Positions 27,301 through 61,923 of a stretch of DNA of 64,000 nt are shown piece by piece. This DNA is from Nageia nagi (Eukaryota; Plantae; Pinophyta), in the NCBI GenBank assembly GCA_050084985.1, contig JBITNC010000001.1, positions 99,758,001 to 99,822,000 of the forward strand. The letters run 5' to 3'. The notes beneath the pieces are model-generated. The model was not told where the DNA came from, did no database searches, and saw only the letters and a list, made by a program, of their open reading frames with translations. The position numbers were made by a program, and so were the translations under genes. Each line of letters opens with the position of its first letter. Position 1 is the stretch's first letter.

Positions 27301-30300
27301 CAGCTTTCCAAAGAAACCAGCCCATGGGAAGACCTACACCACATACAACTAGGGGTCCACCATCGCCACACCATGGAAGGAAATTGGATGATGAAAGAAA
27401 TGAACTTAGAAGGAAGAATCTTTGTTTCAGCTGCAAGAAGCCATGGGTACCTGGTCACCGTTGTTTAGGTAAGGGGCAAATTCATTATATTGAAGTTATT
27501 TTGATGATGAAGCATCCGATGATGAGAATGAACCTAGTAATGAATGCACAATGGAAGATTTCACCAATGAAGGGACTGTTGTTCCAAATACAGTCACCAA
27601 CACAGGAAACTTGGCTACCTTGAATAGTGCCAACCAATTTTACACCATCAAAGTACCCGGGAAAATTCTAGGGGAAAAAGTGATCACATTAATTGATGGT
27701 GGGGCAACCCATAACTTCATAGATGAGGAATTCGTGGCAAGAAAGAAACTAAAATCAGAACTCTTTGCTGGTTTTAATGTGGCTATGGAAATGGGAACCT
27801 TGTACCTTGCAACAAATATGTGACTAACTTGAAAATCGAGTTTGATGGGCATTCAATTGAAGAAGATTTTTATGTATTTCCATTGGGGGAGTACCTCAAA
27901 TAGTGTTGGGAGTACAATGGCTGTTTCCCTTGGGTGATTATACTACCAACCACCAAACATTGCAATTCAAATTCAAAAATAAAGGACGCGAGGTGGTGCT
28001 GCAAGGAGTCAAAGACCACATGACCCAAAAGGTGACAAATAAAAGAATGGAGAAGATCCTCAAAAAAGGAGAATTCGTATGGGCTATCCAAATCTTCACA
28101 TTAAAAGGTATGACTCATCCATCCACTCATTGTGTTTTTCATCATTCCGGCATTCAAACTTTACTAAGCAAGCATAGTAAAATTTTCAAAGAAGTTCCCA
28201 AAGGTTTGCCACCACATAGAGGTTTCCAACATGCCATTGAACTTGAACATGGATCCAAACCCATCATGATTAACCCCTATAGGCATCCAAAGATATATAA
28301 AGATGAAATTGAAAAGATCATAAATGAACTCTTAGCTCTAGGCCATATTCGTCCAAGTACAAGCCCATTTGCCTCATCCGTTGTATTGGCCAAAAAGAAA
28401 GATGGAACATTGAGAATGTGCATAGATTATAGAGCCCTTAATAAAAAAACCATCAAGAATAGATACCCCATTCCTAGGGTGGATGAGCTCATGGATGAAT
28501 TGCATGGAGCTATGTATTTTTCCAAGATTGACCTTAGATCCGGCTATCACCAAATTAGAGTCAATGAGGAGGATTTCACAAAACTGCCTTTAGGTGCCAC
28601 TATGGTCATTTCGAATTTTTGGTGATGCCCTTTGGTTTGACAAATGCTCCCGCCACTTTCCAATCAGCTATGAACCAAATATTCAGAGAATATTTGAGAA
28701 AATTTGTATTAGTATTTTTTGATGACATCCTTGTCTATAGCAATTCTTGGGAAGACCATTTGAAGCATTTGGAAACAGTCCTAAGAATCTTGGAGCAAGA
28801 AGAGTTCTATGCTAAGGAATCCAAATGTGAATTTGGGTTGACTGAAATTCTCTATTTGGGACACATAATCAGTAACAAAGGGGTACAAGTGGATGAACAC
28901 AAAATTGCAGCTATTCAAGAATGGCCCACACCAACCAACTTAACCCATTTGAGAGGATTCTTGGGTCTTTGCAGTTACTATAGAAGATTCATCAAGGGGT
29001 TTTCAGCCTTAGCAGCTCCATTGACCGAATTGACAAAAAAAGATGCATTTGCATGGAATGAGGAGGCCCACAAGGCTTTCACAAAATTGAAAGAGGTAAT
29101 GACCACTTGTCCACTACTTGCACTTCCAGATTGTTCCTTACCTTTCACTATTGATTGTGATGCGTCAGGCTTTGGGATAGGAGCTATTTCATGCAAAAAG
29201 GATAGCCAATTTGCTTTGAAAGTAGAAAACTCAAACCCAATGAAAAGGCTTTCAGTATTTATGACAAAGAAATGCTTGCCATTATGCATGCATTAGCCAA
29301 ATTTAAACAATACTTGGTATGTGGCAAGTTCATAGTAAGGACTGATCATAACAGTCTTAAATACTTTTTGGGACAGCAAGATTTGAATGAGAGACAACAA
29401 AAATGGGTAACTAAGCTTCAATCCTATGATTTTGACATTGAATTTGTAAAAGGGAAAAAGAACACAGCAGCTGATGCACTCTCAAGAACACCCTCCTTTC
29501 ACTCTACATCCATCATTATTGACGATTGGAAAGCTGCCATCATGGCTGAATATACCAAGAATGAATTAGCATCACGTCTCATAGATGGCCACTTGAAAGA
29601 TGATAGGTACAACATTAGAAAGGGACTGATTTTCTACAAAAACAGAATTTTTCTTGTGCCCAATTCAAAGTTAAAAGAGAAATTAATTGAGGCAATGCAT
29701 GACACACCAATGGCTGGTCATCCTGGCTTCTTTAAAACATATAGACAGCTGCGAGAAAGATTCACATGGAAGGGGTTGAAGGATGATGTTCTTAGACATG
29801 TAAGAGAATGTATTATTTGCCAAGAAAATAAGGGAGAGAATACATTACCAGCAGGATTGCTACAACCATTGCCCATTCCCACACAAAAATGGGAAAGTAT
29901 ATCCATGGACTTCATTTCTGGTTTGCCCAAAGTACAAGGTAAAGATTGCATCTATGTGGTAGTGGACAGATTGACCAAATTTGCACATTTCTATGCCATT
30001 TCCACCTCATACACAGCAGTTCAAGTGGCTGACTTGTTCTTCAAAGAAATCTTTAGACTCCATGGCATACCTAAAAATATTGTAAGTGATAGGGACAGCA
30101 AGTTCATGAGTTTGTTTTGGCAAGAATTGTTTAAATTGTGTGGTACAATACTAACCCCAAGTACAAGTTATCATCCCCAAACTGATGGACAAACAGAAAT
30201 AGTGAACAAATGGGTAGAAGGTTACCTAAGGAACTATGTTTCAGGGCAGCAACGTGCATGGATAAAATGGTTGCACTTAGGGGAGTTTTGCTACAATTCC

Positions 30301-33300
30301 TCATATCACATCTCCATTAAGATGTCTCCTTTTATGGCTTTGTATGGATATAATGCTCCTAACATTATTGACTTGTTGATCAATGATAGTAGGGTACCTA
30401 AAGCTAAAGACTTTGTGGAAGAAAATCAGAATATATTGAAGACCCTAAAAGATAACATCCAACTTGCACAAAACCAGCAGAAGAAATATGCTGATCAACA
30501 AAGAACAGAACGCCAATTTGAAGTTGGAGATATGGTCTACTTACGAATGCAGCCCTATAGACAGTCCACATTGAAGAAAAGTGGGAAGGAGAAGCTAAGA
30601 CCACGATTTTATGGCCCATATAAGGTCATACGCAAGGTGGGAGAAGTTGCATATGAGTTAGAGTTGCCACGCAATAGCAAGATCCACAATGTCTTTCATG
30701 TTTCATGCCTCAAAAAGGCCTTAGGACAGCATGTGGTTCCATCTACGGAGTTACCCCCACTTGATGAAGAAGGCAAGCTGATTCTTGAACCTGAAACCCT
30801 CTTGGAGACCAAGGAAAAAATCTTGAGGAATAGAGTCATCAAAGAGTACCTGATAAAATGGAAAGGCTTACCAGTTGAAGATGCTACATGGCAAGGGTCA
30901 GAGATCCTTATGCATCCAGCCTTGAATTGCTTGAGGACAAGCAATTTGGGAGGGGAGGATTTGTAATGTCCCAAAATTCTTTGTATTTCATTTTCATTGC
31001 AATTTCTAGATCTAGGAGTACTTTACACTTTTGGCATTTATCAAAAGAAAAGAAAAAAAAAAATGTAAAGAATTGTATTTGGAATCATTATCCATGTTCA
31101 AGTCGGCAAAACCACTTGGAAATCTAGTTTTCTCTTCCAAGGTTGGTCGGCTGGCTTTTATGGAGACATTTAGTGGCTATTTAAGCAAAAACATTTCTCA
31201 TTTTCAATGGATCATCCAATCAAATTCTGATATCTGCTTTTCTTGAGTTAGGGATGTGCCCTTCTCATCCTTCTTTGGCCTAGGGATGCGCCCAACAGCC
31301 TTAGAAGTGGCATTTTGAAGAATTTGTGAGGAGACTCATATTTTGGATGCCCTAAATATTGTTACAGGAATGTTACAGAATTGTTACAGAAATAACAGTC
31401 TTATTACTTGCGTATTGAAGATTTGATCTCATATACTCATTGTTCTTGTTATCTACTCTTGAATGAATGATTCTATGGTCTCTTTCATGCGATTTAATTC
31501 CTATATTACTGCTGTTATAAGATCAGAATTCTGTCATCATTATTAAGTAATAAAAGTGCTGTTACAGTTGGAGTTTGGAGTCAAAGATAGCATGTAACAG
31601 ATCTAGTTTTTATGCCCAAAAATCTTGAGTAATAATTGGGATATTTCAACTTTATAAGATAGTCTATACTAGTTCATTTATTGCTCATATTCAACTACAA
31701 AAGCTAGATACTCTGTGCACATGATGAGAGTTAATCGCAAGATAATAAACATAACTTTGCATGAAGCCACTTGATGAAAGCCACAATTATCTTATAGTTC
31801 ATAAAATCCTGTTATCTTTTCTACTGAATTTCACATCATTGAACCATCTCCCAATTCGAGCAGCACTTTTTCTTTTGATAAGTTAAAAAGAAATTTCAAT
31901 AATTATATGAGTCACAACTGAAGAGTTGTACAGAAAATTTAGATAAGGCTGTAGGCAGACGTTTGGGTCACCATTAAAACAACAAAATCCAGTTTAATAA
32001 TAAAAACAAATTGAACATTCAATAGATCTCATTTCAGACTATGCATCAATTGACTCGTTAAGGTTTTTCTACTCTTACACCCGTACATACGAAAAACAAG
32101 TCATATTTGCATATAAGAAGTGAGCAATATACATGAGAGAAGACAGCCTAATCCTGAGTGTCAAACTTTGTTCAGGTTCTGAACACCAACTGCCAGCATG
32201 TTCATCCACATAATATCTCTTTCATGGAGAACACTGTAGAAAAAACATGCCAAACTTGCTCTTGAATTGGATTTGGGTGGTTATCATGATCGAACTGGTA
32301 GACTAAATACAACAAACATGTGTGTCCAGTAAACAGCCTGTGAAAAAAGTTCCCAAGAGCAGGACCTGACTCTATAAACACAGCATCGTATCCAGCAATA
32401 TTAAATCAATTGCAACCAACAACTGGCCAAGTTCCTACCCCATGATTACAAAGCACATCATACAGCAGGAAAACACTTTTACAAGCCTTCAGTATGCTTT
32501 GATCTGCTAGTGATTCATGACAGGAATTAACAGCTTGGTTTGCTGACACAAATGAATACTTAGGGATAGCAAGTCCTGCAAAAGCCCAACAAGCTATAGG
32601 CATCAGGATGAGCTTTGGTATGCTTTGGATCTGCTACTGATTCATGACAGGTATGAACAGCTTAGTTTGTTGAGGCAAATGAATCCTAAGAAAGGGATAG
32701 TGAGTTCTGTGAAAGCCCATCAAGCTATTGTCATCTGGATGAATTCTGTAATGTAGATCCATTCTTCAGTATATTACAGTACCCTATCTCCTGGCATATT
32801 TATAGATACAGAAATAAATGAAGAATTGGCAAATCCCTTTTAGGCACTAAAGACTAATTTATTGTTGTATGTGGAAATTAGATAATTTGTAAGATCAGCG
32901 ACATAGATCAGTTGGGAAATAATACAATCCTCTAACTAAATAACTTGAAACCCAGCATAGTAATTGTTGGTATGTTTTTCTTTCCTCGCTCAAAACATGC
33001 ACAAGATTTGGAGGAAACAACGTTACTTGTTCCCGTCTGAGAGGATTGGTTACCCCAAGCGCTCAAATGGAATATGGTCTTGATGGCTCAGCAGTCAGAG
33101 ATGCATGTTGTTAACCGTATACAAGGGAAATACACGCCAGAGATTCCTTTCCATGAATGAGGAAGGACTGCAAATGTGGACGAAAGCAAAGAAAGATCAC
33201 AAAATGCAAGGATGAACACAAGGGTAAATGCGAGGGAATGTGTGGAAAGAAAAAGACCTATGAGGATATCACCAGTGATAGTGTCTCGACAGGTCATCTT

Positions 33301-36300
33301 CAGATTCATTAAGGTCGATATACTCACTATCAAGCCGGGCAGCAAATAGCAAATATGCTCAAATCACTACCCAACGAGAGTAGGAAGCTGTAAGGTCTTT
33401 ATGGAAGACTCAATGTAAAGGGGAAAAGATGAAGTGAGGGCACGAGTGTATAAGACTAACCGAATGATATAAAGATAAGTTATAGGCCTCATAATATATC
33501 CACGCACGTGAACTATGCAAAGAAGGATCAAACTCTTTCACAGGAATAATACATATGCAACCCAGAGAAATGAACCATTCATATATGCATAATCCCACAA
33601 ATGATATATCTCGCAGTAAGACTTTATGATTTTATTCCTCTAACAAGCACATTCATGATGATTTTCAATAATGAAACATGCATAGAACCCCTTATGCAGC
33701 AATCTTCTATGTAATGGAATGTTAATCTTATGACATGCAAAGGCTCAAAATGATTATACATGTAAACTCAATGGCCTCAATCTCAGAATGCAAGAACTCC
33801 AGTATGTGATGCTTTCATTATGTGCAAAAGTTCAATGCCAAATAGTACAAATAGCCTATGCATAAACTCATGTCAAAACTCCTTATCCAAAAACCTCTTA
33901 TGTTCAAAATCCTCCTCCTAAATGGCCCGAATGGGGTATAAATAGGCCACCAGAAGTGATGCCTTAAAGGCATCAAATCTAATACGGTGTGCACACACGC
34001 AACACACATACTGATACAAAATCAGATATCATCACTCAAAACTATTTAAGTGGCATTTAAAGCTGACAAAATATAAATGCCATAGCCGCAATGCATCTAC
34101 TCTACATCTAATCTATGCAACAAAAAATCAGATATGCAATAAGTATACTAAAAAGGTCTAACATCTAAACCGACGAGAGCAAAACCTCATCCCTGCACTA
34201 GTCAAAGCCATAAATGAGCCTGACAGATTTGATCTGGTGGGAGCAAAACCTCATCCCTACACCAATCAAATCAAAATAAATCAAAGTTTGATATAACCAC
34301 CGTAACCATATGCATTAAACAAAGAAAAAGATACTGCAGATAAGTCTAAAGGTGAGTTAGATTTAGGCCAAATCTGATTCAGCATGAGCGAAGTTCCACT
34401 CCTCGCTCATAAGACCATAGGACTTGTTAGAATTATAATGTTATTTAGGGCATTGTGCAATTAATATGCTTAGCATATTAATAATCACCTAAATTTGGTT
34501 ATTAGGTGATAATGAGGTTCATGCATGGTGGGTGAATAGTATTCTCCACCCAACTTAAAATAATATTGTTAGGTGGAATAGTGTCCCCACTAACAATTAA
34601 ATGTAATTCTATATTGTAACTTAGGGTTAACAAACCTATTGTGGTTATGTTAATTAACTACCTAAGGTTAGTTTTGAGTCCTATAGAAGGAGCTCATTTT
34701 GTGAAGATTTAAAACAAGAAGATGAAGATGGGAAGTTGTTAGTATAGATCTTAGTTAGTAAGGTCTTAAGCATGCAAACTATGCTTCATGCTAAGGAGAG
34801 TTATGGTTGAGATCCATATGAGTGTACATTGTTTGAAAGTATAGTGAAAAGGAGACCTAAAATGGAGTACTCCATGTGATAAAGGAACCACTATACATCT
34901 TGTGTTACTATGTGAGAATGCTTCTTGAGTTCTTAGTTTAGAATGATTGATTGCTATATGTAATGAAAGTCCTACAAGTGTTCTTGGGTTATGGAATCCC
35001 TCAATTCCATCAAATGGTATCAGAACCTCCTTGTGGGATCTCCTCCAAACTCCAACTTGGAAATTTGAGGTAACTCACCTCAAATTAAGGTATATCTATA
35101 CTCTTATCTTATTTCAAGTTTTATGTGAAACTTAAATAGTTAGTCCATTTCAATTTCTTATTTTGAAGTTGAATCTTGATGTTTATACTCACATGCTTTA
35201 TTTGAGAGTAATGGGCTCAAATTTAAGGTAAAATCATTACCTTAGTGACATGTTAGTAGTATTGCTTGTTTGCTAAATCTAACACATGTTATAAAGTTAG
35301 ATTCTTATGATTTTGAGATTAACATGTTTCAGTTCATGTTATGAATATTTTTTTGCCTATTTCATAATTTTTTTTAAATAATGCAAAATGTTTTTTGTGA
35401 AATATTTGGTATAAAACAAATCACAAATAGAAGTTGCAAAGTTTGTAATTTTTTTGTTGTCTACAATATATTTGCCAAATCATACGATAAGAATGCTCAA
35501 ATCTTGCAATTTTGTATGGTGCTCAAGTTTTTTTTTTTTTTTTTTGTTAAAAAGCAATTTGTTTTATTTTTTAGAAAACCTTGTTACTACTTGCTTTTAC
35601 AATTTAAAAAATAAAAAAGGGGAGGGCGGCTGTTCTTTGTTTTAACTACTATACAAAGTTTTAAAAAGTGTATTCTCAATAAAAAAAAAGAGGAATTTTT
35701 TGAGTAGGCCACCAACACTTTAAGCAATAAAAAAAAAACCATTTGATTGCCGCCCTCGCGGCACCCCCTTCGTTCCTCAACCCTTTGCACGACCTTTCGC
35801 TTATGAAGCGAATGCACTACCACTATGCTATGGAGGTAGGTATTAGTAGAAGTCGTGTTGACCTCTGCCACCACAACTGCGCCACAGGCCACCATTGCAT
35901 ACTAAATTGCCATGCGATCCTCTTCTCTCCTTCAACACCTACCTTCCCGGATTCGAACTCGTGGCCTCTAAAACACGGCACACCCTCAGAATTTGATCTT
36001 TTGAGTGTGCATCGATCTTACAGCGCAAAGGATTTCGAGAACTCTTGCTTTCTGGGAAGGAAAGATCGGAGGGGGAACTCTAGGGATTTTATGGAGCGTT
36101 TGATCCTGGCTCAGCATGATCGCTAGTGGCATGCTTAACACATGCAAGTCGGACGGGAAGTGGTGTTTCCAGTGGCGGAGGGGTGCATAACGTGTAAGAA
36201 CCTGCCCTTGCGAGGGGGACAACAACTGAAAACGGTTGCTAATACCCGATATGCTGAGGAGCAAAAGGAGGAATCCGTCCAAGGAGGGGTTCACGTCTGA

Positions 36301-48300: not shown

Positions 48301-51300
48301 ACTTCGCAAGTGATTGAAAAACTTGCTTAGTCCACGCTGACTTGTAATTGGCTTACCAATTTTTGGCAAATAAAAAATTGCAAACTCACGAGTCTTTAGC
48401 ACAATTATGCAAATTCACAAAATTCTCCCAATTTTTTAAAAAAAAACATTACTTTCATATTATTTATTTACTGAGATTTAGTTAAACTACAATATAACAA
48501 AGAAAAATATGCTTCTATATGACTAGTGCAATTTTGAAGAAGAGATAAATTGAACACAAAAGCAACGCACATTGACGAAACTATATTCTTGATCTAACAA
48601 ACTTTTCTTGACTGTAGATTCAAAATCTTATGTAATCTCATTGTTTAAAACCTCAAATTCCATAAATGTGAGATTTCGTTTACATATTTTTTAGAAGATG
48701 ATAGCTTTTTAACAATGAAATGTGATAAATTTCTGAGTCATTTATCACTGAGAAATTGTTTGTCTTCATAGATCATTGCTTGTCTAACTAATGATCTATA
48801 AAGACAAACAATTTCATTGAAATGACAAAATGATCTTAACATATTTAACTAATGATCTATAAAAACAAACAATTTCTCAGTCATTGAAATGATAAAATGA
48901 TCTTTACTGATGTGTGAAAACAATTTACAGCACACTTCATGTTCTGAATCAATACTGATCAATGTAATTACCACAAATGGGAAAAGCCATGAAATGGCAG
49001 TTCCACTTTGTCGGGCAGCAATCGTAATTGGTCCAGCTAAAGAGGGAACCCAAAAGAAACCTTCTGTCAAAAGGCCCTTCAATCAAAGACCATAAACGAA
49101 AGTTCAGAAAGAAAGTTTAAATAAACTGCACATATATTGTTTTCAAATTGATATTTTTCAATTCGCAATGGACCTTAAGGAAACATGTAAAGAAGACAGA
49201 TCCTTTCCATTTTTCCCTCATTAAACATACACTATTACCTCATTAGCCACATTAGACAGAGCCTGATACAGTCCAATCCAAACAGGCATTGTAGCAAGTG
49301 TAGGAAGACATCCTGTTTATATTACAATAAAAATCAATCAGAATGATATTAGTGAAAATTTGAAGTTAAAATCTGAGAAGTTTAGGTAAATGGATCAGCT
49401 TTAGTTGCTAAAATGATACAAAGTCCTCAAGATTTTTCATCTTTGCAAAGCTAAGTCTACAGTCTTGTGAATTACAAAACATCCTCATTATCTGCATCTG
49501 ACGATTACTGAACATTTAACTACAGCCCAAACAGAACTATATAAAACGGGAATATAATACAGCTAGTCTTGAGCATCACAAAGTAGAAAAAGATACATAC
49601 ATTTGAAGAGAACATGAATCAATATCCCTTAGACTGGAGTTGAATTTCTAAAGTATTGAAGTATACAAGAAGGGTTATGTCAGGTGAGCCATCACTGATC
49701 ATTAGGAGAAAATGTTGTACACATTCCATGTTTAAAAATAATCATCAAGCAGTTTTAAATAATCAAACTCAGACTTGTGTAAGTTCCAATGAAGCTATGA
49801 ATCAGGTACCCAACCCTTTTCTCGACTCTTTGATAGGAAAAATGCTGCCTTGGCGATTCTCAAGTTATTAAAATCATCTGTTGCTTAATCTGGAAGGGAA
49901 GAAATTTATTGACATGTTCCAGGAGACCAGATAGGTTGAAGGGAAGGAAAAATACTGTGATGAGGACAAGGCACACATGATACTGTTGGGATGCTTTTCT
50001 TTCCTGCGCGGGACACTCTAAATATCGCGGGTGGAACTTAGGAGATCCCATGCAACATAGTTGGGAATGCGTTACCAATTCCCCAGTTGAAAAGGACTAT
50101 GTAGCTCCAAGGCTCTTGTCGAAACACTTTGCCCGGAAACCCCAACGTCGTGACATTGTAAGGTTTGTTCGCCTGGTGTGTTTTCTGAATAGGGATAGAT
50201 TAATAAAAAAGGTGTGGTATCCCTCTTTGGAATCAGCCTCAATGGAATGGAATGAGAGGTATGTAGTTTGTTAACCAACGATGTTTTATTCTTTGATGTA
50301 TAGAGTTTGTTTGAAACTTTTGTGTGTGGATTTAACGATCATATTTGGTATGAAAGCATAAAGAAAGTGTAAAGGCAATGCTGTAAAAGGTGAAGGACGA
50401 CACCTTGGAGAAAGAAGGGATACTTGGTCAGGTATGAGGTTGAGGTTCATTGACAGGAAAGTGTCTAAGAGTTGATCTCTTCCGAATCGGTTAAAGACTC
50501 TTCATCCAACTTTGCAAGCAAACAACTTAACATTCGAATTGCTTCAAAGAGGAGAAAGAGGAACGTCAAATGGGTGGAAACGGAAAGTTTCAACATGGGT
50601 GGATCACGGTTTTGGATGGACTTAAAAAGATGTCATAGAAGTAGAAATCTAACATAGAATACCCAATCAACTTGCATGTTAAGGATCGAGCAACAAGCAT
50701 AGATAGGCTTCAAGCACTTTTAAAGTTTTTCAAAGATAACTTCCCTAAAGCTCATGAGCTTTCAAAGGAATAAAACGGAAGTACACAAAACCACTATGAG
50801 AGCCCCCAAAGAATCAATCAATAACACCAATGTGAAAAGTTTCAAACTCAAGTCTTTGCTTTAACCACTTTGTATTAATTTGAAAAAGAGTTGTGCAAGG
50901 ATACATCAATTTGCTACTCTCTTACAAAAGTTCTCTCTTCAATCTTGAAGTGTTTTGCTTCAAAATGAAGTCCTTCCAAAAATGAGACCCTTGGTCTCTT
51001 ACTTATAGAGTTTGGAAACCCTAAAAATGACTTTTGAAACCCTAGAAATGAGTTTCAAAACCCTAACCCTAATTGCGAAATTAAAAGCTAATTAAAAATG
51101 CTAAATAGAGATTACAAGTGGACTTAGTGGAAATCCACTAAGTTAGCCAAATATTTGGCTTACATATCAAAAACTTGCCAAAATAGACCCCTTTCTATTC
51201 TGGCGATTGTGGGAAGATGACTTGCACGTTTGTGGCGATTTTGGTTTTAAAGTCATCTCCCATGAACGCTTCTATGTTCCTGATGGCATAGTGGATTGTC

Positions 51301-54300
51301 TAGAGGGCTCCTTTGTTTAATAGCAGGTGCTCTAGGATAGCCTTATTGGTTTTGACCATTTCTTTGCTCCAATCAGCCAATCTCATCCCTCTTGTCATTT
51401 GTTTTCCTGTTTTCAGGCTGTGTGGATCCTCGGAACATATCTGCTCTGTGATAGTGGCGTGGATCATTGTCATCACTGTCATATACTCCTTAATGTTGTC
51501 GTTTTCCTCAAACAAGGGTACCTGGAATTCGTATTCCCTTACCTGTTCACTGATGACGGCTTTGAGTTGGGTTCTAGTGCATATGAAGTCGATGGAATTG
51601 GTTTTGATATAGAACAAGCAATCGTATAGTTAGAACCAATCTATACAAAAATCCAACGTGAAAGGATGATGGGTTGCCCTTCTCCTTAGGTCTAGCATTG
51701 TAGGGTACCCATTCTTCCATCTGATGATTAATTGGTCTATTTTCTCCGCTTGAGAATGCGACCCCTCCTCCTCAATATAAAAATTTACCATGCTTGAGTG
51801 GAGTACTTTGATGGCCTCAATAAGGTTCTTGGTCCATCTTTGTTTCAAGGCGGTGATTCCAATATTTAAGTCAACCTGCTTTTTGATGTCTTCAACTGTC
51901 AAATTAGCAACCCTGACTTCTTTGTCGATCATTTCCTACCTCGCCACTATCTTCTTCAGCTCCCGATTCTCTAACTTCAATAGCGTACTAGATTGCCTCA
52001 ATGCTCGGGCATTTGTGATGATGTTGTGCTCCATTCCCAAGGGGCCAACAATCTCTGCAGGGACCTCTTCTGTCTCAACGATGAGGGCAAAACTTTCCGG
52101 TACCAGCCTTGTTTTTCCTTGAGTAGATCTTGTTCTTGTAGGTGACTTTTCCTAGAGTGGTGATAAGAGTATCAGTCTACTGAAGTTCCTCATTTTCATC
52201 TTCGAAATCTTCTCCTTCGCAGGGATGATTTGAACTCAAACTAGCCATCACTGCAGCCATGTCGAAGCGGGGTTCCATAGGTTGTTTTCATTAGGGAACC
52301 ATCTTTCCGTCTTCGATGATCTCGACGTCATGCTCTACTTGTCTTCTTTTTCTCCTCTGTTCTTCATTTTCTCCCTCATCCTCTTGATTTCCATCATCTC
52401 CCCCTGAAGATGATGCCATTATCTTGGGTCTTGAAGTACCCTTCTAAGCTGATGTTGTTGTGGTCCTCCGAGATGGTGGCATTTGCGACGCCTATTTCTG
52501 AGGAGCAAATTTTGGGGTATTTGTTCCTGTTGCTTGTTGTACAATCATATCGACTGAGGGATTGCCTTCGCTAAGGATCTCTACTGAATGATCAATGTTG
52601 ACCCGCTCAAAGGCAGTATCTTGGTTTATCTCCATGTCAGTATTGATGACTCCAACAAAATCCATCTCTTCATCGATCTCTGACGAGTCACTCGGTCCAT
52701 ATTTATCGGAACTGGATGATGATGTGCAGGGGTTTTGATTCAGGCGCATACCACTCCGATTCAAACCTTGCATGAGATTTATCTTTTTCTACAAGTGTTT
52801 GAATGGTTGAGAGATCAGGCTTGCTCTTCTAAGGTCCAAGATTTCATTCCTCATACTCATGACAGTTGTTTCAATGGTTTGTTCGAGGATGCTATTGATA
52901 GCATACTGCCCGTTCTGTCCTTGAGCCAAGGTTACTAAAGGGGATATTATGGGAATAATATACCTGTGGCTCGGGGGTACGGTGACCTGTGCATTAGCTC
53001 TTAACCTGGTAGCTTCTTCGGCTTCATGCTGTTTTTATTCTTTTTTCAGCTCCTTGTGAATCCATCAAACCTGCAGGGCATCCTGAATGTTCCTGTACCT
53101 CTCGATGCTACCAAGGGACTGGTGTGGGTATGATGAGCTCCAAGTCTTCTGGAAGAATGCATCAATCACTCCATCAAGATCATAGTGATCCGCAACTACT
53201 TCTATCGGGAATTCATACAATGCTAGCTCTTGTTTGATCATTTCAATCTGTCACCAAGTGGTGCATTCATAATTCCCGATGACAATAGGTAATTGGTAAG
53301 TAGTCGCTGCATTCTTTGCCCATACCTTGTCGTGTATGTTTAGCAAGAGTCTTGAAAATTCCATAACGATGATAAGATCACTTGCATAACGAGTTAGCCT
53401 GTAAGGGGCTTCTTTGGAGCCATAGACCCTGAGGTAGGTGAACTCTATGTCATCTGCAAAGAAGTTCGCATGTCCCTTGATAGCGGCACTAGCCTCTTTG
53501 GATATTCTGAATACGTTGATTCTGCCTAAGATCTCTTCGTAAATTTTGCCTTCAAAACCATCGATCATCATCGTCCAGTTTCCAGTATTCCATTTATTAT
53601 GAGCATAAAACCGAGGGTAATTTTTCCACACTAGATGTGTAGGGTTGTACAGATACTAGGTATTGGCAATTGAAGTTACCCTTCCCTACCATGACGGAGT
53701 AGGAAAACTAGGTAGGAGTTCATATAGAATTTCTTGCTCTTTTGAATGTGTTTTAGTTGCTGAGCCAAGGAATCACTAATTACTCTGCTCCACCTAACAC
53801 CTATACCGCTACTGATTAGCTCTATAAACCCCGTGAATTCCGGCCAGAATTTGTTGTCATATTTCTGTCTGGTCACTCTGGAAAGCATGGATATTAGTCT
53901 GGAGACTACTAGATAGAACTCTCCTCTGTTTGGCGTTGCCAAGGCTCTCCCTATGAGATGCTTGTGGTCATCGGCCAACCAATCTTTGATCAAATCAGTT
54001 GGAGGTTTCAGACCCTTGTAGAACTTCAAGAAGTCTTGCATGTTGTATGATAGGCCTTCGCCCTTCCAAGCGAATGCCCTTTCTATTCCTTCCTTAGAGA
54101 AGTCCATGATTACCTCGTTTCTTCTATCAAGGAGTCTTCACTCTCGGATGTCGCAATGCTTTCCTAGCTCGTAGCATAGCTCAGGGAAGGGGGTGGCAAA
54201 TGGCACCATAGAAGCTAATAGTAGTAAGGAAGTTTTCAAGGTGTCCTTCACTATCGAAGCTAGATCCAATGTATGTATTTTCATTAAAGTTTTAATTGGA

Positions 54301-57300
54301 TCGAGGGAGTTACAATCTGTATCTCCAATCTCACTCAGTTGGTCAATGATTCTTGCAATGGGCATCATGGGCTCTAACGTATGTTCAAGAGTGATGGGAC
54401 TGTCCATCGTGAGCTTTTCTGCTTCCTATCTTTGATATTCTAAGCAACTAATGCCATCTTGTTCCTGTCTAAGAGAACAACACAGTGTTAGAGGAGTCTT
54501 GGGAAGCTTGTGGCACCTTCTAGGCAAGCTAAGAGAATGTTTCAAAAAATTGGGATTTTGGGCATTTTTTCTCTAAGTGTGCCATCATTGAAAAATGTCA
54601 AGGTTTGCAATTTTCAAAGCCTTCCGGTTGAGTTTAAGGTGACACAAAGGTAGCTGCCTCAAAGGGGAATGCCTTGGCAAAAAATTTGGATGATTGGAGA
54701 ATTTTCAAGTTTTTCTCAAAAAAAGTTGACTTTTTCAACAAGAAAAAGTGGTGAAATTTGGCAAAATTGGCGAATGGTGTTTCAAACTTTGAAATGGCCA
54801 AAATGGACTTCAAAAACAATTTTTGGAGTTTTCTAAAATTGTTTTGGATTTTTTTCAAGAAATGAGGATTTTGAGCACTCAGATCTTGGATCTTATGAAT
54901 TTTTTTGTGTTTTTTAGCTGAAAATAAAATTTGATCATATGGATAAAGGGGATCCATAAAAGTGATCAAACTTGAAATCTGAAAAAATAAATTTTCAAGT
55001 GTTTGAGGGTTTGAAAAATGGGTTTTTATGAAAAAATCCTCAAAACTTGGAAAAAATGGAGTTCATGTGGATGGAGGATGCTTGGATTTCGAATTTTAAT
55101 GGAGTTTGGGTAAACGGCCAAGATACTAAGTGTTTGAAAAGTCCTCCAAGGCTGGAAAAATGGCTTCTTTTCTCACTTGGCTCTCAAATTCTCAAAAAAT
55201 TGGGTAGCATAAGGGTGCGAAAATGAAAGGTGAGCAAAACATGTCACTTCCACATCAACCCTAGAGCTCAACACTCCCACTTTGGACTATTCTCTCTCAA
55301 ACCCAATGTTGGAAATCATGAGAAAACTTGGAAAAAAGTCAAAACCTGCACCTAGATGGGGGGGAAGGAGCAGATTTGGTGCAATGGGGGAGGTCTTGAA
55401 GCAAAGATGATGACCTTGGAATGCTCTACAACCTTCATGCTTCAGATATGGATTTTGAATTTTGAGATTTTTGAAGGAAAATCCAAATTTTTTTAGTTTT
55501 CTCAGCCCTTAAATCCTTTTTGGATGCAAAAGGTGGTTTTTAGGGGATTGTGTGAACCAAATTGCACAAATGATAGATCAAAATGGTGTAGAATCTACCT
55601 CATAGAAGTGAAAAATTGCAATTTTGGGCACTTTTAGGGATCAAGGAGGCTAGGTGCAAGTTTTAGGATGTTTAGGCAAGTTTTGAAAAACGAAAAAATG
55701 GGGGATAACTTGCAAAACCAGTGCCTACCTTTTAGGGGGGCAAAAATTAGTTTTTGAGCAAATTTGCAAGAGGCAAAGATGCTTGCATTTGGATTTTGAA
55801 CCCTACCTTTGTTTCCAATTTTGTTTTTGGGATTTTTGAAATTTCTTGGAAAATTTTGGAGCTCTCCCATTGGCTGATCCAAATTTTGGGATTTTGAGGG
55901 ACTAGATCAACTTTTTTCCAAAAACTTAAAACATGAAAGAGATACAAAATTGTATTTCTCATACTCCTAGGATAAAAAAATTTGATTTTTGGGCAAAAAA
56001 TGAGGGCTTGCAAGCAAGCCGCAGGGTTTAGGGGCTTTGGCATGTTTTTTGGAAATTTAGAAAATGGGGGAAACAAGCCAAAACCGCCACCTAGCATTTT
56101 GAGGGGTTAAACTTGATTTTTTCACAACATTGCAAGAGGCAATGTTGATCTCCTTTGAATTTTGCAACCTACCTCACTTTCATTTTTTGATTTGACCAAT
56201 TTTGGAAAATTTTGAGAAAATTTGGAGCCCTCTCATTGGTCAATCGAAATTTGATGATTGAGGAGGTAGATTTTATTTTTTTAGGAAAGTCAAATCATCA
56301 AACTTGTGTGGAATCCCATCCTATACCCCTTGAAGGTCAAAATTTTCAATTTTTTTCAAATTTGGGGCACAAGAAGGGTAGGCGCAGGTTGTAGGATGTT
56401 TGGGGTGTTTTGAAGATTTTAAAAAATGAGGGAAAACACCCAAAACCAGCGCCTAGCTCTAGGAGGTTAAAATTTGCTCAATTTTGAAAATTCCAAGAGG
56501 AAAGGTGTTTAATTTTTGATTTGCCACCCTACCTCATCTTTGGATTTTCATTTTTGCAATTTTGAAATTTTCAAAATTTTGGAGCATTCCTATTGGCTGT
56601 TCTTTTACTCATTTTCCTGTTTTTCTCACTTTCAGTAGAGCAAAACTCATCGAAATCGCAAACTTGAAAGACCAATTTGATGTAGAATCGCGATCTCTAC
56701 GCTCCTGAACTCTAAAATTGCCATTTCGGATCAATTTGGGCCTCCCAAAAGGTAGGCGCAGGTTTTGAAGAGAATAGGCCATTTTTCGAAATTTACTACA
56801 TGAGAGAAAACTTGCAAAACTCCCCTTTAACTTTTTGGAGGTCAAAAATCGAATTTTTTCGAAATCTCCAAGAGTAGAGTGGCCTTAATATGTCATTTGG
56901 CACCACACCTCTCGGATTTTCATTCCGAGCACTTTGGAAAAAACTTAATTTTCGGGCTCAAACCAAAGCTTTTCGAAGGCCAAAACACTCATTTCTTGAT
57001 CCTAGCACATAAGGGTATTGAAACTTGTTTTCCTCATTCATCTTGGGCTATACTATACATTCCCGACCTTCTCCATCTTTTATGGCCCAAACAGTGCATT
57101 TTCGGCATTTCCAAACTCTAAGTATGAATTTTGACCATTTCTGGCTTGTCCAAACTTTTCCGAGCTCGAACGGTGAAAAAACATTCATTTCCAACATTTT
57201 CGGTATTTCAAGCTCAAAGTCTATATTTTTGGCCTTTCCGGACTCAAGATATGCAAAAACACTCATTTCCGACCTTTTCGGGCATTTCCGGGCTCTTTGA

Positions 57301-60300
57301 GCTCAAACTTGCATTTTTGGTCATTTTCGAGCTTCTTGGGTTCAAATTGTGCAAAAACGCACATTTTTAGCATAGTGACCACTTCCGGGCTCAAAATTGA
57401 CAAAAACGCACTTTTTGGCTGTAGATGCCCTTTTCAGGCTCAATTTGTGCAAAAACAGGCATTTTCATCATCTTAACTGTATCCACTGCTCCTAGGCTCA
57501 AACTTGACGAAAAACACACCTTTTGTCGTCTTGGCGCCTTTGTTGCTCAAATTTGCCAAAATGATACCTTTTCTGCCCTGATGGCCATTCGTTCAAAACT
57601 CCATTGTCTGGATGCTATCGCAATCCAAAACTCCGTCCTCTGAGACACTACCTGAGACCGAGCCCTGACTTGGCCATTGGCTGCACTGAACTGTTTCCAT
57701 GACTCCGTGGCATGCTCGTGCATTGTTTGATCAATTTGCCGTTCTGGATATCCATATTGGTCGTAAGTTGATCATGCCTAGGCAATGTTGCTCATTGCCA
57801 TTTGAAAAAATTGGATCCCCAAAATGTTGCATCTTGGGGTGTGTTGTGCGGGCACAACAGATACATGTAAGAATTATTCATATATCAGCATGTATATAGT
57901 GTTGAAACTTAATTCCATTCCTGATAAATTTCAAATGTAAAGTTTGATCGCATCAAAATAAGGTTGACAAACATTGTATGCGTGAAAGGATCGAAAAAAA
58001 AGACATACAAAATACAAGGGGATTTTTTAACAGGGGTAAACACTGAAATATTTGTTTTTATCTTCGGTAGAAGTAATAAGCTCAAGCCTGAACAAGAAAA
58101 ATATATGTTATTTCCATTGACACTGTAGATAATCTTTGTACACATTGTCACAGTTTAAAACACAATTCCAATTGTGTTTCTTCATTAAAGAAGTCTATAA
58201 CCATTGTATACCATTTTTTTCATAGAAAAGGTTAAAGCTGAACAACTGCAAAGATACTGCACTATATAAGCAAGATAGTTCCAATCAGCCTCTTCAAGAA
58301 TTGAAGGAGAATAAAATAAGGGAGACAGTTGTTTTTGTATATTGTGTGTAGGGAAGAAAGAAAGAGATAAACCAACTGCATTAATGTCTAAATGGCAACA
58401 AACATGGACCCACGTTGAACAAGATTCAAAAAGATAACTTTGACTCTCATTAGCATTTAAATAATGAAACATATCTTCTATGATTGCGGAAGAAAAATTC
58501 AGAGTTTACAGAACATAAATCATTAATGACAGTAATCCTCTCCAGGCATATGTACAATGATGGCATATCAATTTTAATTGACTTCATATCTAACAAGTAA
58601 TAAAAAGTAGAATGCTTAGAATAAATATGAATTCTGTAATTATTGTTTACTAAAAATCAATACCAGGCAAGTAAATGAGAATTAATCACCTGCTAATGGA
58701 TTCACTCCAGCTTGCTTGTACAGTCGAGCAGTCTCAAGTTGTATCCTTTGCTGTATGACAATTACAAGAGACAAATCACAACCAATATTAACGATCATTG
58801 CTGACATCTTAAAGCCTCTAAACGAAACAAGCATATAACAAAATGCATCTTTTAGTTGGTTCAAAACTTCAAAGTAAAATATAACAAATCAAATTCCCTT
58901 TCTGACAATCATCCTAACTGTCCATTCAAACGAATCTCTATAAAGGGGAAACGTGCGACTGAATCAATGTCAGATAAATGAGATTTTGAAGTCTAGGAAC
59001 CAAAGTTTCTTATTGATGCAATAATCTAGCCTTACAAGAAATAATTTCACAACGGAACTATCTTAAGTAAATAGGTTCCTTGATCTAAACACTGTTACTT
59101 ATAATTTAAGTCTTCTTACATCAAAATTTAAGCTTTTAATCCAAAGCGAACCCCCAGCTCCCAAAGTCTTCTTACATCAAAATTTAAGCTTTTAATCCAA
59201 AGCAAACCCCCAGCTCCCAAAGTCTTCTTACATCAAAATTTAAGCTTTTAATCCAAAGCAAACTCCCAGCTCCCAAGAAAAATTAAAATATTTCTAACAA
59301 CAATTTTCTCAATTTTACAGTTAATGTTTAGAAATGTATTTCTAATGCCTTGGAAACCAAATAACATTTAGCAGTGATGACCACCCACAATCAGACAGGT
59401 AAAATGTAAATCAAAGTATGATTACCATGTTAAAGTACCATAAACACTTCAAGGAGAAAAACTACCTTTGATAGAATTCACATTCTAAATTATCACATGA
59501 GATGAATGAAGAACAAAATGTTCATAAAGGAAGCATAAAAAGAGATCAAAAAAGAGAAAAATTATTTAGATTAACATGGTCGACCTCTCTCATTTGAAAT
59601 GGAAGGTAAAATATATCTAGGAGTAAACCCAATAGTTTTCTTTCAATAGAAAAATGCACCAAATTTATCACCAAGTTATTGTGGAGCATTTATGATATTA
59701 GAAAGCAAAATAAAGTGACCTATAAGCTGGAATTTTCAACTCAATTTACGTACACCCATTATTACATGTTAATTTCTTAAATAACTCTTATAAGGATATA
59801 GCCAATTACTTCCCTGCTATGTCTAACTTGAAAAAGTAGAACAAAAAGCCATGACCCAATTAAGATACTGGAAGAAAGAACAAAAAAAGCAGAACTATCA
59901 TGTGAAGCTTCTGGAAAGGCATCATAGGAATGGATTCTAGCATTATTGTTCAACTGCAAAGTATTGATACAAATTATAATATATCACAATAATTTCCTTA
60001 GATAGAAAATTGAGACGAGAAGGAAAGCCAGATTATGGATAACAAGAAATTGATGTATCATTACAAATGGAGCAAAGGAAAACGGTATTTGGCCAAATTA
60101 ATTCAAATCTGTACAAGAAATTATCTCCCAGATCCATGTGAGAAATTCCAATCCATACAAGGAATTCAAGTCCATTCGTAAGAAGGACAACCTGCATTTC
60201 AAATCTGTACAAGCAATTTTGTACTGGAACCATACAAGAAATGCAATTCTGGACACAAGAGAAGAGAAACTGCATTTTAAAACCTTACAAGGAATTCAGA

Positions 60301-61358
60301 TTCCACATTTTAAAACTTTACAAGAAGATCCATATGAAAAATTCAGATACATACAGGTTCTTGTGATTAATGTATGCCTCTCTTACAGTAGGACAAGGTG
60401 TAGAGAAGGAACTAAGGGGATTGGGTGAAGTTCATAGTTATTTTAACTATTCTTCATCTGATTGATAAGAGTGTCTGGAAACATGGTTCTAACCTTGAAC
60501 GCTGAAGAGATTGTTTGTCAAACATTATTTCCATAGTTTGTAAAAGCATCTCCTCCCATTAATGTAAACCATATAGCAGAAGATACTAAACATCAACAAA
60601 CAATCCAAGGAGTTGACAAGTAGTTTAAGTTTAGCCAATTCGCTAAGCATTAAAATGATCTAGCCCTTAATTTCAAACAGCTCACTACAAAATTATCTAG
60701 CATCTCAAAGTTCAAAGCCGAATGATCCTTGTGTAGACCAAAAGAAAGGCAATCTAACTCATAGTCACAAAACGATCAGAGAAGCAAATTAACAGACCGT
60801 ATAGTCAGAATGTGGTCTCCAACAAACAATTCATTCATGAAGAGCATTTTCCAGCAGCATTCTCCATTAGAAAGTATTTAGGACAGAAAGAATCACTTTA
60901 ATTGATCTGTTTTCAAAGATTCATGACTCAGTCTCAAGCCAAGGCTGTTAAATACCATTTGTTTAGAAACAATTGTCCAAACATGAATGCATTAGAAAGT
61001 CATTTAACGGTTACTTACAGTGAGGTTTACTGATTCTAGAGGAAGAACTATTAAGAATTTAAGTAAATATAAAAAACAAGCACCTCTATGTTTCTTCTAG
61101 TTGTTTTCCATGGACAAAAAAATTATCAATAGCATCCTTTACAATCTCTAAAATTCTAAATAGAAGTAATTAAGCACTGAAAATTGGTTTAAAACAAACT
61201 CATCTGGCTACATATTCCTCCACTGGAAACACTGAACAAGCTAAAACAAGATACAATGAGTACAAAGTGGAATAAGAACAAACCTGATCACCTTCATATC
61301 GGTCCCTGATGGCTTTTATTTTGGGTTGAAGGTTCTGCATGGCCAATGTTGACTCAAC
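24231..61358 (-). CDS. ALB3: ALB3 (chloroplast thylakoid YidC/Oxa1/Alb3 membrane insertase), 5'-partial; join of exons 61358-61284, 58750-58690, 49312-49239, 49076-48972, 45498-45391, 45218-45115, 25158-24991, 24867-24702, 24329-24231
   Basis: Manual splicing gives 960 nt in one frame with GT-AG at every junction: [16 protein letters not shown]...[51 protein letters not shown]...[32 protein letters not shown]...AGQAKRS...[12 protein letters not shown]. This is collinear with Arabidopsis ALB3 as I recall it. The basic C-terminal cpSRP43-binding motifs (AKRS, SKRSKR) favour ALB3 over ALB4. N-terminal exons lie beyond 64000. Confidence 0.96.
24702..24867 (-). CDS. ALB3: ALB3 exon ([12 protein letters not shown]...DSLSTEK)
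   Basis: 166 nt; TAG acceptor and AAG|GTAG donor; charged stromal tail. Confidence 0.88.
24991..25158 (-). CDS. ALB3: ALB3 exon ([22 protein letters not shown]...AGQAKRS...RRGER)
   Basis: 168 nt; AG/GT. Confidence 0.93.
25551..31648 (+). mobile_element. Complete, very young Ty3/Gypsy chromovirus (Reina-like) in an ALB3 intron, antisense to the gene
   Basis: 687-bp LTRs at 25551-26237 and 30962-31648 with no difference found; perfect TSD ACTTT; PBS TGGTATCAGAGC at 26239-26250; PPT GGGAGGGGAGGA before 30962. Confidence 0.98.
26280..30966 (+). pseudogene. Gypsy gag-pol with chromodomain (frameshifted)
   Basis: Gag with [14 protein letters not shown]; protease [10 protein letters not shown]; [11 protein letters not shown]; RNase H DCDASG; integrase HHCC and DDE motifs; GPY/F; chromodomain [16 protein letters not shown]. 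Broken by several small frameshifts. Confidence 0.95.
32491..32750. repeat. Diverged tandem duplication, ~128-bp unit x2
   Basis: TATGCTTT(G)GATCTGCTA.TGATTCATGACAGG...AAAGCCCA.CAAGCTAT...GGATGA occurs twice. Confidence 0.8.
33028..34424. mobile_element. Probable truncated LTR fragment
   Basis: Abrupt TGTTCCC start; internal repeated GAGCAAAACCTCATCCCT with small hairpins; cut off by the LTR starting at 34425. No partner LTR or TSD found. Confidence 0.4.
34425..35026 (+). mobile_element. Orphan 5' LTR (34425-35012) with Met-tRNA PBS
   Basis: TGTTAG...CCATCA followed by AA and TGGTATCAGAAC (35015-35026); no matching second LTR in the window. Confidence 0.75.
36087..36410 (+). pseudogene. rrn16: Plastid 16S rRNA 5' fragment (NUPT)
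   Basis: GTTTGATCCTGGCTCAG, ACACATGCAAGTCGGACGGGAAGTGGTGTTTCCAGTGGCGGA (plastid-type short V1) and ACACTGGGACTGAGACACGGCCCAGACTCC; ~320 nt, mutated at conserved positions and truncated. Confidence 0.93.
38002..38616 (-). pseudogene. Unknown-family ORF, copy 1 (205 codons, in-frame stops, no frameshift)
   Basis: [21 protein letters not shown]...[10 protein letters not shown]...LHPHEYY...LHWESTY...Ser/Asp-rich tail; paralogous to 38850-39428. Confidence 0.7.
38850..39428 (-). pseudogene. Unknown-family ORF, copy 2 (193 codons, in-frame stops, no frameshift)
   Basis: [20 protein letters not shown]...[10 protein letters not shown]...LHPQEYF...LQWSSTY...Ser/Asp-rich tail. Confidence 0.7.
39495..43694 (+). 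mobile_element. 5'-truncated Ty1/Copia element (Copia-C) with 3' LTR at 43368-43694
   Basis: Starts mid-gag ([10 protein letters not shown]); [51 protein letters not shown]; PPT AAGGGGGGG then TGTTAG...TTAACA. Confidence 0.9.
43750..44250 (+). mobile_element. Highly decayed Gypsy integrase-tail fragment
   Basis: Residual [12 protein letters not shown]...GEK-like translation; no intact frame. Confidence 0.3.
45115..45218 (-). CDS. ALB3: ALB3 exon ([35 protein letters not shown])
   Basis: 104 nt; AG/GT; the split TG|G codon is completed by the exon at 25158. Confidence 0.95.
45391..45498 (-). CDS. ALB3: ALB3 exon ([36 protein letters not shown])
   Basis: 108 nt; AG/GT. Confidence 0.95.
48738..48905. 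repeat. Short direct duplication with an adjacent inverted copy
   Basis: AACTAATGATCTATAAA.ACAAACAATTTC occurs at 48787 and 48847; its reverse complement GAAATTGTTTGTCTTCATAGATCATT lies at ~48752. Confidence 0.65.
48972..49076 (-). CDS. ALB3: ALB3 exon ([35 protein letters not shown])
   Basis: 105 nt; AG/GT. Confidence 0.95.
49239..49312 (-). CDS. ALB3: ALB3 exon ([24 protein letters not shown])
   Basis: 74 nt; AG/GT. Confidence 0.95.
51300..54457 (-). pseudogene. Decayed ~1000-codon accessory ORF inside the giant LTR-like unit
   Basis: Consecutive minus-strand segments: 54407-54138, 54107-53676 ([28 protein letters not shown]), 53631-53251 ([16 protein letters not shown]), 52773-52492 (acidic), 51932-51630, 51617-51300. 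ATG at 54457 is preceded by a pyrimidine tract and AG. Confidence 0.75.
55640..57620. repeat. Degenerate sub-repeats inside the giant LTR-like unit (~365-bp period, then shorter GGCTCAAA-containing repeats)
   Basis: (G)GTAGGCGCAGGTT-like anchors at ~55650, 56015, 56377 and 56751; recurring GCTCAAA...AAAAAC at 57100-57600. Confidence 0.65.
58690..58750 (-). CDS. ALB3: ALB3 exon ([21 protein letters not shown])
   Basis: 61 nt; AG/GT; phase matches the next exon. Confidence 0.95.
59108..59275. repeat. Tandem repeat, 56-bp unit x3
   Basis: AAGTCTTCTTACATCAAAATTTAAGCTTTTAATCCAAAGC(G/A)AAC(C/T)CCCAGCTCCCA at 59108, 59164 and 59220. Confidence 0.95.
59520..60370 (+). mobile_element. Ancient Gypsy integrase/chromodomain remnant with possible LTR
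   Basis: RPLSFE...[26 protein letters not shown] and VHPLLHV remnants, followed by an internally repetitive TGTATCA... segment. Confidence 0.55.
61284..61358 (-). CDS. ALB3: ALB3 exon ([25 protein letters not shown])
   Basis: 75 nt; AG acceptor and GT donor; phase 0/0. Confidence 0.95.
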
Positions 61359-61923
61359 CTGTATAATTAAATTCAAAACAATACTCATTACAAATGAGCA
61401 CCAAAAGAAAAATATCTTCATCACTGTCAAAAAGGCAATGAAAAAAACTTGGCAGTTAAAAACATAACACAAGTATATGCACTGCTTCCGACTTCCAAGC
61501 ATTTATCAACCTTCAATTCTATTATTATGCATCTTTCCTGTAGCATGTTATACTTTCAGAGTCATCTAAACTTAAAAGCGAATCTAGGATATTCAATTTC
61601 TAAAATTCATGTTGATGTTGGTCTTTACCTTTCTGTTCACAAACAAATCTTCAAATTTGTATTTCATCCAAGAACCCATAGGTCCATCCATGATTTCTGA
61701 AGAAATGGGTCAGGTCTTGACATCTATTGATGACATAGTTCCAAGCATAATGGATGAACCTTAAGGAGGATTTTGTTTTGCAAAAGAAGGTTCGTAATAT
61801 GAGAAGGGGTCAGCAAGAGATTTGGTTAGTTGGGTTGCAAGGCCAGTTGCCTAAGAGAGCCAAATGGTATGATAAAACTAAGGTGGAGGAATTATTTCCT
61901 CATCTTATTAAAAAGTAAGCCAT

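Follow-up and report, generated by a model that had tools for sequence, protein, structure and literature searches.

A 7.9-kb repeated unit in an intron of Nageia nagi carries a large, formerly selected gene and is probably the solo LTR of a giant retrotransposon

During our analysis of a 64,000-nt window of the Nageia nagi genome (contig JBITNC010000001.1 of assembly GCA_050084985.1, positions 99,758,001 to 99,822,000; coordinates below are those of the window) we found a repeated unit of 7,876 bp at 49984-57859 which is probably a solo long terminal repeat (LTR) and which carries a large decayed open reading frame (ORF) on its minus strand. The ends of this unit, its target-site duplication, its repetition, its independent insertion sites, the purifying selection on its ORF, and the presence of two similar TATA/initiator-like modules (one only in the copy designated L008) are established. 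On balance we lean toward a fuller reading, in which the unit is an LTR left behind as a solo copy by a giant retrotransposon; the U3 of that element would have taken up an accessory gene, probably along with a promoter belonging to the gene, and the encoded protein is weakly predicted to resemble VANC and plant mobile domain (PMD) proteins.

The unit has integrase-type ends, starting with TGTTG and finishing with CAACA, and is flanked by GATAC on its left (49979-49983) and right (57860-57864). It lies within an intron of a gene we named as ALB3/Oxa1-family from a weak Pfam match to PF02096 at 61200-61502; host exons near 58708 and 49313 flank the unit, and the host gene is on the same (minus) strand as the unit's own ORF. 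The large introns full of transposable elements, and the air metagenomes among the sources of matching sequence, would fit a gymnosperm host. A preliminary description, made from the sequence alone, had given exactly these boundaries and had reported no second LTR, primer-binding site (PBS), polypurine tract (PPT) or gag/pol motif between them, and both statements held. As in a solo LTR, the TG...CA ends are accompanied by a target-site duplication within the range of 4-6 bp, and the locus has no second LTR, PBS, PPT or gag-pol: a self-blastn comparison of the unit (word size 7) detected no repeat shared by its two ends, only degenerate internal repeats in its right third, and no terminal inverted repeat (TIR) was found beyond 5-7 bp. 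No internal PBS or PPT adjoining a TG/CA boundary stood out within the unit, and neither gag/pol nor any other Pfam family was matched by the three frame segments of its ORF. A candidate structure with two diverged terminal LTRs, an outcome that the preliminary description had said would count against it, was largely excluded by a dot plot.

Taken by themselves, the end motifs could be fortuitous: across the whole window there are seven cases in which TGTTG and CAACA, spaced by 1-15 kb, are accompanied by a perfect 5-bp duplication. The ends are real because contig depth starts and stops there in all four public runs whose contigs we aligned along the window, and because three further copies have the same starting position. 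Summed contig depth, which does not equal copy number, was 132-6,063 in every bin of 50002-57924 in each of the four runs and 0-1.4 in bins wholly outside. The three copies (L002, L008, and L010; 82-92% identity) came from a metagenome scan that gave ten loci, the remaining seven being dropped as chance 21-mers. Their left flanks were mutually unrelated, none with a PBS, and loose contig ends at 49984 (9, 20, 8, and 9 contigs in the four runs) agreed with one another at only 0.39-0.48, with no PBS in the majority line; behind 57859 the agreement was 0.44 for 19 contigs in X1. These mixed flanks and loose ends at both termini show that the unit occupies many insertion sites. The terminal 48 bases received 2-7% of the inner depth, such that a PBS junction shared among copies could have escaped notice.

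The copies differ in what they retain, as L008 lacks 51414-54417, nearly the entire ORF, and 594 bp of the ORF are missing from L010. The flank of L010 (L010:1-1353) has reading frames resembling host exons, presumably of a sulfite-oxidase-like gene, and this copy seems to be intronic too. L002 is interrupted (L002:5002-6688) by another LTR-like sequence, whose TGTTGTGCC start resembles that of the unit and whose telo-box and TATA-like motif come only ~900 bp in; with no long ORF and otherwise unalignable to the 7.9-kb unit, it may be a short-LTR relative. We also noted by eye, without counting, that the five bases beside the ends are often G/C, three A/T, and G/C, as in GATAC; this applied to loose ends at 49984 and 57859 and to the L010 flank, though not to the flanks of L002 and L008, and hints at a target-site preference. 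Elsewhere in the window, a 20/22 match to the unit's left end (32965-32986) marks the start of a further LTR-like sequence that has no adjacent PBS.

The minus-strand ORF extends over ~54457-51195 (~1,087 codons) and is split over three frame segments in the window copy, where 17 stops were counted. The preliminary description had recognized a decayed ORF starting from an ATG at 54457; the decay and the position of the ATG stood, while the extent it gave (~3.1 kb, ~1000 codons) was corrected, and the ATG, being in a different frame from the conserved domain and followed by a stop after five codons, is a candidate start only. Segment A (53676-54457) encodes a conserved N-terminal domain, predicted to be globular, with weak VANC21/Transposase_32-like resemblance; segment B (52090-53676) encodes the rest of the conserved region, predicted as a long helix, followed by a low-complexity stretch rich in S, T, D, and E with an RRKRR motif; and segment C (51195-52090) encodes a conserved C-terminal region for which no family was found. 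The internal frameshifts near 53683 and 52090 are absent from the other copies covering those sites, whose own breaks lie elsewhere. Between the window copy and L002 the ratio of nonsynonymous to synonymous divergence (dN/dS) was 0.26 (95% CI 0.21-0.32, 988 codons), not the value of ~1 that the preliminary description had listed as a second unfavorable outcome, and all four parts of the ORF were below 0.45 (0.30 in segment A, 0.19 and 0.41 in segment B, 0.18 in segment C). L002 and L010 gave 0.24 (601 codons), and controls for these two pairs, consisting of shifted frames and non-coding DNA, gave 0.67-1.23. The ratio for the window copy and L010 (0.38) was not clear of its controls (0.46-0.73). 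The ORF was under purifying selection in the past and represents a once functional gene. Hydropathy does not suggest an env-like membrane protein, as no transmembrane helix was found over the three segments (best 19-residue value 1.38).

An LTR reads U3-R-U5 on one strand, with repeats, promoter, and then a tail, and the unit has this order on its minus strand. The putative U3 end (57842-57859), behind which the right-hand loose contig ends lie, is an 18-nt stretch forming a perfect 8-bp hairpin. It is followed by degenerate tandem repeats (55577-57525, by self-comparison), with ~49/98-bp units spanning 57174-57525 and ~360-bp units spanning 55577-56924, which are candidate enhancer or protein-binding arrays. 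The main promoter-like module (50980-51075), ~1 kb from the unit's left end, combines telo-boxes at 51065, 51044, and 51023 with a TATA (51008) followed 25 nt later by an initiator-like motif; its TATA-like motif is kept in L002, L008, and L010. In the putative R/U5 (49984-50980) copies have diverged comparatively little: over the last 1.1 kb of the unit the window copy and L002 differ by 0.12-0.15, and at synonymous ORF sites by 0.42, a pattern that a cis-acting R/U5 would be expected to show. Motifs and between-copy conservation would together fit a U3-R-U5 layout with a Pol II promoter.

A second promoter-like module appears to lie upstream of the ORF. In L008 a 48-bp piece ~790 nt upstream of the ATG has another TATA and initiator-like motif, and the TATA-to-CA spacing is identical in the two modules. 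The window copy lacks this piece (gap near 55243); the corresponding site (55170-55270, minus strand) keeps a telo-box-like motif and, near 55170 by eye, a donor-like GT, which follows the module in both L008 and the window copy. An A/T-rich stretch then reaches a predicted splice-acceptor-like site (54479-54465), the second AG of which is kept in L008 and the first not, and which ends 8 nt before the ATG at 54457. The acceptor-like site, the telo-boxes, and the main TATA all lie where the preliminary description had placed them. Provided that the unit is a solo LTR, we consider it fairly likely that the ORF has its own promoter with a 5' untranslated region (UTR) intron, the basis for this being the single copy L008. 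With its upstream TATA missing and its ORF broken, the window copy is dead.

Searches with the encoded protein found relatives of its N-terminal domain only. There were 34 of these, and because they range from 26% to 83% identity the domain is, judging by sequence, old; the ten we looked up were all unnamed singletons on contigs of 1.0-2.8 kb. No longer or full-length relative turned up in word-index protein searches (weak evidence), scans of viral contigs gave one chance match and otherwise none, and scans of prokaryote genomes gave none. Pfam models PF03078, PF20167, PF04195, and PF10536 had no match on the three ORF segments or on the 34 aligned members, and DUF7405 matched three of the 34 (best E 1.6e-4), not the window protein. 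An Atlas search with the N-terminal domain led to PF20167 and PF03078 (values 0.84 and 0.82), and one with the C-terminal region gave no usable match. Sequence searches of PDB with two profiles returned nothing under an E-value of 0.6, and Foldseek against viral models and PDB gave no match at E 0.001, VANC21 not being in the second look. VANC21 was the first-ranked, weak match among 48,161 for both models of the N-terminal domain, and among the best 50 of the 48,161 it alone aligned 180-194 residues of the domain with both models. On these models we predict, weakly, a VANC/PMD-like chromatin factor, which lends slight structural support to the preliminary guess of an anti-silencing function; an anti-silencing or chromatin role is conceivable, though we hold it with less than even confidence.

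These likenesses can be set beside known systems. PF20167 (Transposase_32) and PF03078 (ATHILA ORF-1) are described as families of the Athila extra ORFs (PMC11728184). The 3' extra ORFs of Athila share with our ORF the standing of a large accessory ORF in a plant LTR element, in addition to the Atlas leads to both families; Athila also has a 5-bp duplication (PMC6317226). The position differs: in Athila the ORF sits downstream of pol and before the 3' LTR (PMC6317226, PMC11728184, PMC7264820), and ours is enclosed by the ends of one single unit, with no Pfam match and no transmembrane helix. Ogre elements (Tat) resemble the unit in their very long LTRs (1.9-6.5 kb; PMC6431247) and have extra ORFs with a plant mobile domain (PMC6317226), but our unit is 7.9 kb, the Ogre extra ORFs are internal, Ogre is described as an angiosperm lineage (PMC6317226), and no reverse transcriptase was seen here for placement. 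VANC21 of VANDAL21 (PDB 9lnk/9lnj) and the PMD proteins MAIN/MAIL give the N-terminal domain its best fold match, a weak one: VANC is reported to be structurally homologous to the PMD protein MAIN (PMC13547354) and to bind motifs in the tandem repeats of its own element (PMC5735166), the 7.9-kb unit likewise having tandem repeats beside its gene, and MAIL proteins are reported to bind motifs and oppose silencing (10.1101/2024.09.27.615353).

If the unit is a solo LTR, a full element with two such LTRs would have been inserted by an integrase (TG...CA, 5-bp duplication), and LTR-LTR recombination would have left one. The gene may have begun as an extra ORF preceding the 3' LTR, the arrangement of Athila-type elements, and would have entered U3 once plus-strand priming shifted upstream of it. 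Transcription would run from the upstream module, with an A/T-rich 5' UTR intron ending at 54465, to the LTR's own poly(A) site, and both LTRs of an element, as well as fresh solo LTRs, could then yield protein. The protein may bind the U3 repeats of its own family and keep silencing away, as VANC does for VANDAL transposons. Among the copies and loose contig ends examined, no direct pair around PBS-gag-pol-PPT was seen. None of the three additional left flanks had a PBS, which is mild evidence against this account, as it has a chance near 0.17 under ratios described for Pinaceae of one solo LTR per 4-7.5 complete elements (PMC5751070).

The absence of a PBS from all four left flanks, which are unrelated to one another, would also suit a unit that is itself mobile, with minimal TG...CA ends and neither LTRs nor transposase, moved as DNA by the integrase-like enzyme of another element while keeping a helper gene; loose ends mixed at both termini and contig depth stopping at both fit this as well. 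We think this improbable, as a terminal inverted repeat of only 5-7 bp with no transposase is unlike GingerRoot (TIRs of 100-150 bp, 6-bp duplication) and Ginger (4- or 6-bp duplication) as described in PMC6839031, the unit having none of the long TIRs, 4- or 6-bp duplication, or integrase-like transposase of those elements; in addition, the promoter-like module ~1 kb from the left end is where an LTR would have it, and a PBS junction common to the copies could be overlooked at a depth of 2-7% of the inner value over the final 48 bases. Another rival takes up the route proposed in the preliminary description, a spliced transcript reading into the 3' LTR: the unit would again be a giant solo LTR, but the gene would be made only from the full element, its transcript beginning at the 5' LTR and using the acceptor of the 3' LTR, and solo LTRs would be silent cassettes. 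The model for this was retroviral nef or mouse mammary tumor virus (MMTV) sag, in which a gene overlaps or lies inside U3, as ours may; those genes are far shorter and belong to animal viruses, while the gene here has ~1,087 codons and likely its own promoter. Such a route would use the acceptor-like site just before the ATG, would suit a window copy without an upstream TATA, and has a precedent in the spliced env-like messages described for Bagy2 (PMC7264820). It is not needed, however, because the L008 TATA/initiator-like module sits inside the unit upstream of both the acceptor and the ORF, and with the donor-like GT after the module site in both copies the acceptor would simply close a 5' UTR intron; we regard this route as rather unlikely, though somewhat less so than the self-mobile unit.

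Far less credit is due to two further readings. One takes the unit for a degenerate non-autonomous retroelement (LARD-like), or a full element after deletion, in which two short LTRs have diverged and the extra ORF is internal, the layout of ordinary Athila/Tat elements. Such extra ORFs do normally lie inside the element (PMC6317226), and the two promoter-like modules could be remnants of two LTRs. Yet the ends are dissimilar at word size 7 while the copies are 82-92% identical to each other, and no internal PBS or PPT boundary stood out. Reverse transcription regenerates identical LTRs, and a family with unlike ends could not spread, which makes this reading very improbable. Equally so is a plus-strand solo LTR with U3 at the left and the gene antisense inside it: the left flank of L008 ends in six G next to the TG, resembling a PPT, but this flank resembles other nested elements and in part matches the end of a Gypsy element at 30924-30978, no majority of loose ends finishes in a run of G, and the telo-boxes, TATA, and repeats fit the minus strand.

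Other features of the window include a young chromovirus-like Gypsy element (25549-31259) whose two 300-nt LTRs are identical and whose gag-pol frames are long, nested Copia-like elements (2931-12987) with LTR pairs at 89% and 97% identity, and, in the host intron, a 56-nt tandem repeat in three copies at 98% identity (59108-59276). A GC-richer stretch at 35730-36300 has frames that look like a fragment of 16S rRNA, which we take to be perhaps an organellar insertion.

Plant extra ORFs are described as internal (PMC6317226, PMC7264820), and plant LTRs as non-coding and reaching ~5 kb (PMC6317226), or 6.5 kb in Ogre (PMC6431247). If the unit is an LTR, its 7.9 kb is longer than any plant LTR in the literature we examined; by title and start of abstract we found no plant LTR with a large gene inside, most subscription papers being outside coverage. 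A 7.9-kb LTR with a selected gene of ~1,087 codons would make solo LTRs protein-coding units. Such an LTR would be overlooked or mis-split by pipelines with an upper limit on LTR length, with consequences for the ratios of solo to intact elements invoked in explaining giant gymnosperm genomes. Should the VANC-like reading be true, it would supply a testable function for retrotransposon accessory genes whose role the literature calls unknown. It is even possible, although we consider it doubtful, that this is a high-copy plant family with 7.9-kb LTRs each having a complete, separately promoted VANC-like anti-silencing gene together with repeat arrays bound by that protein; each insertion would then carry two copies of the gene, and LTR-LTR recombination, the host's main deletion route, would leave one working copy behind.
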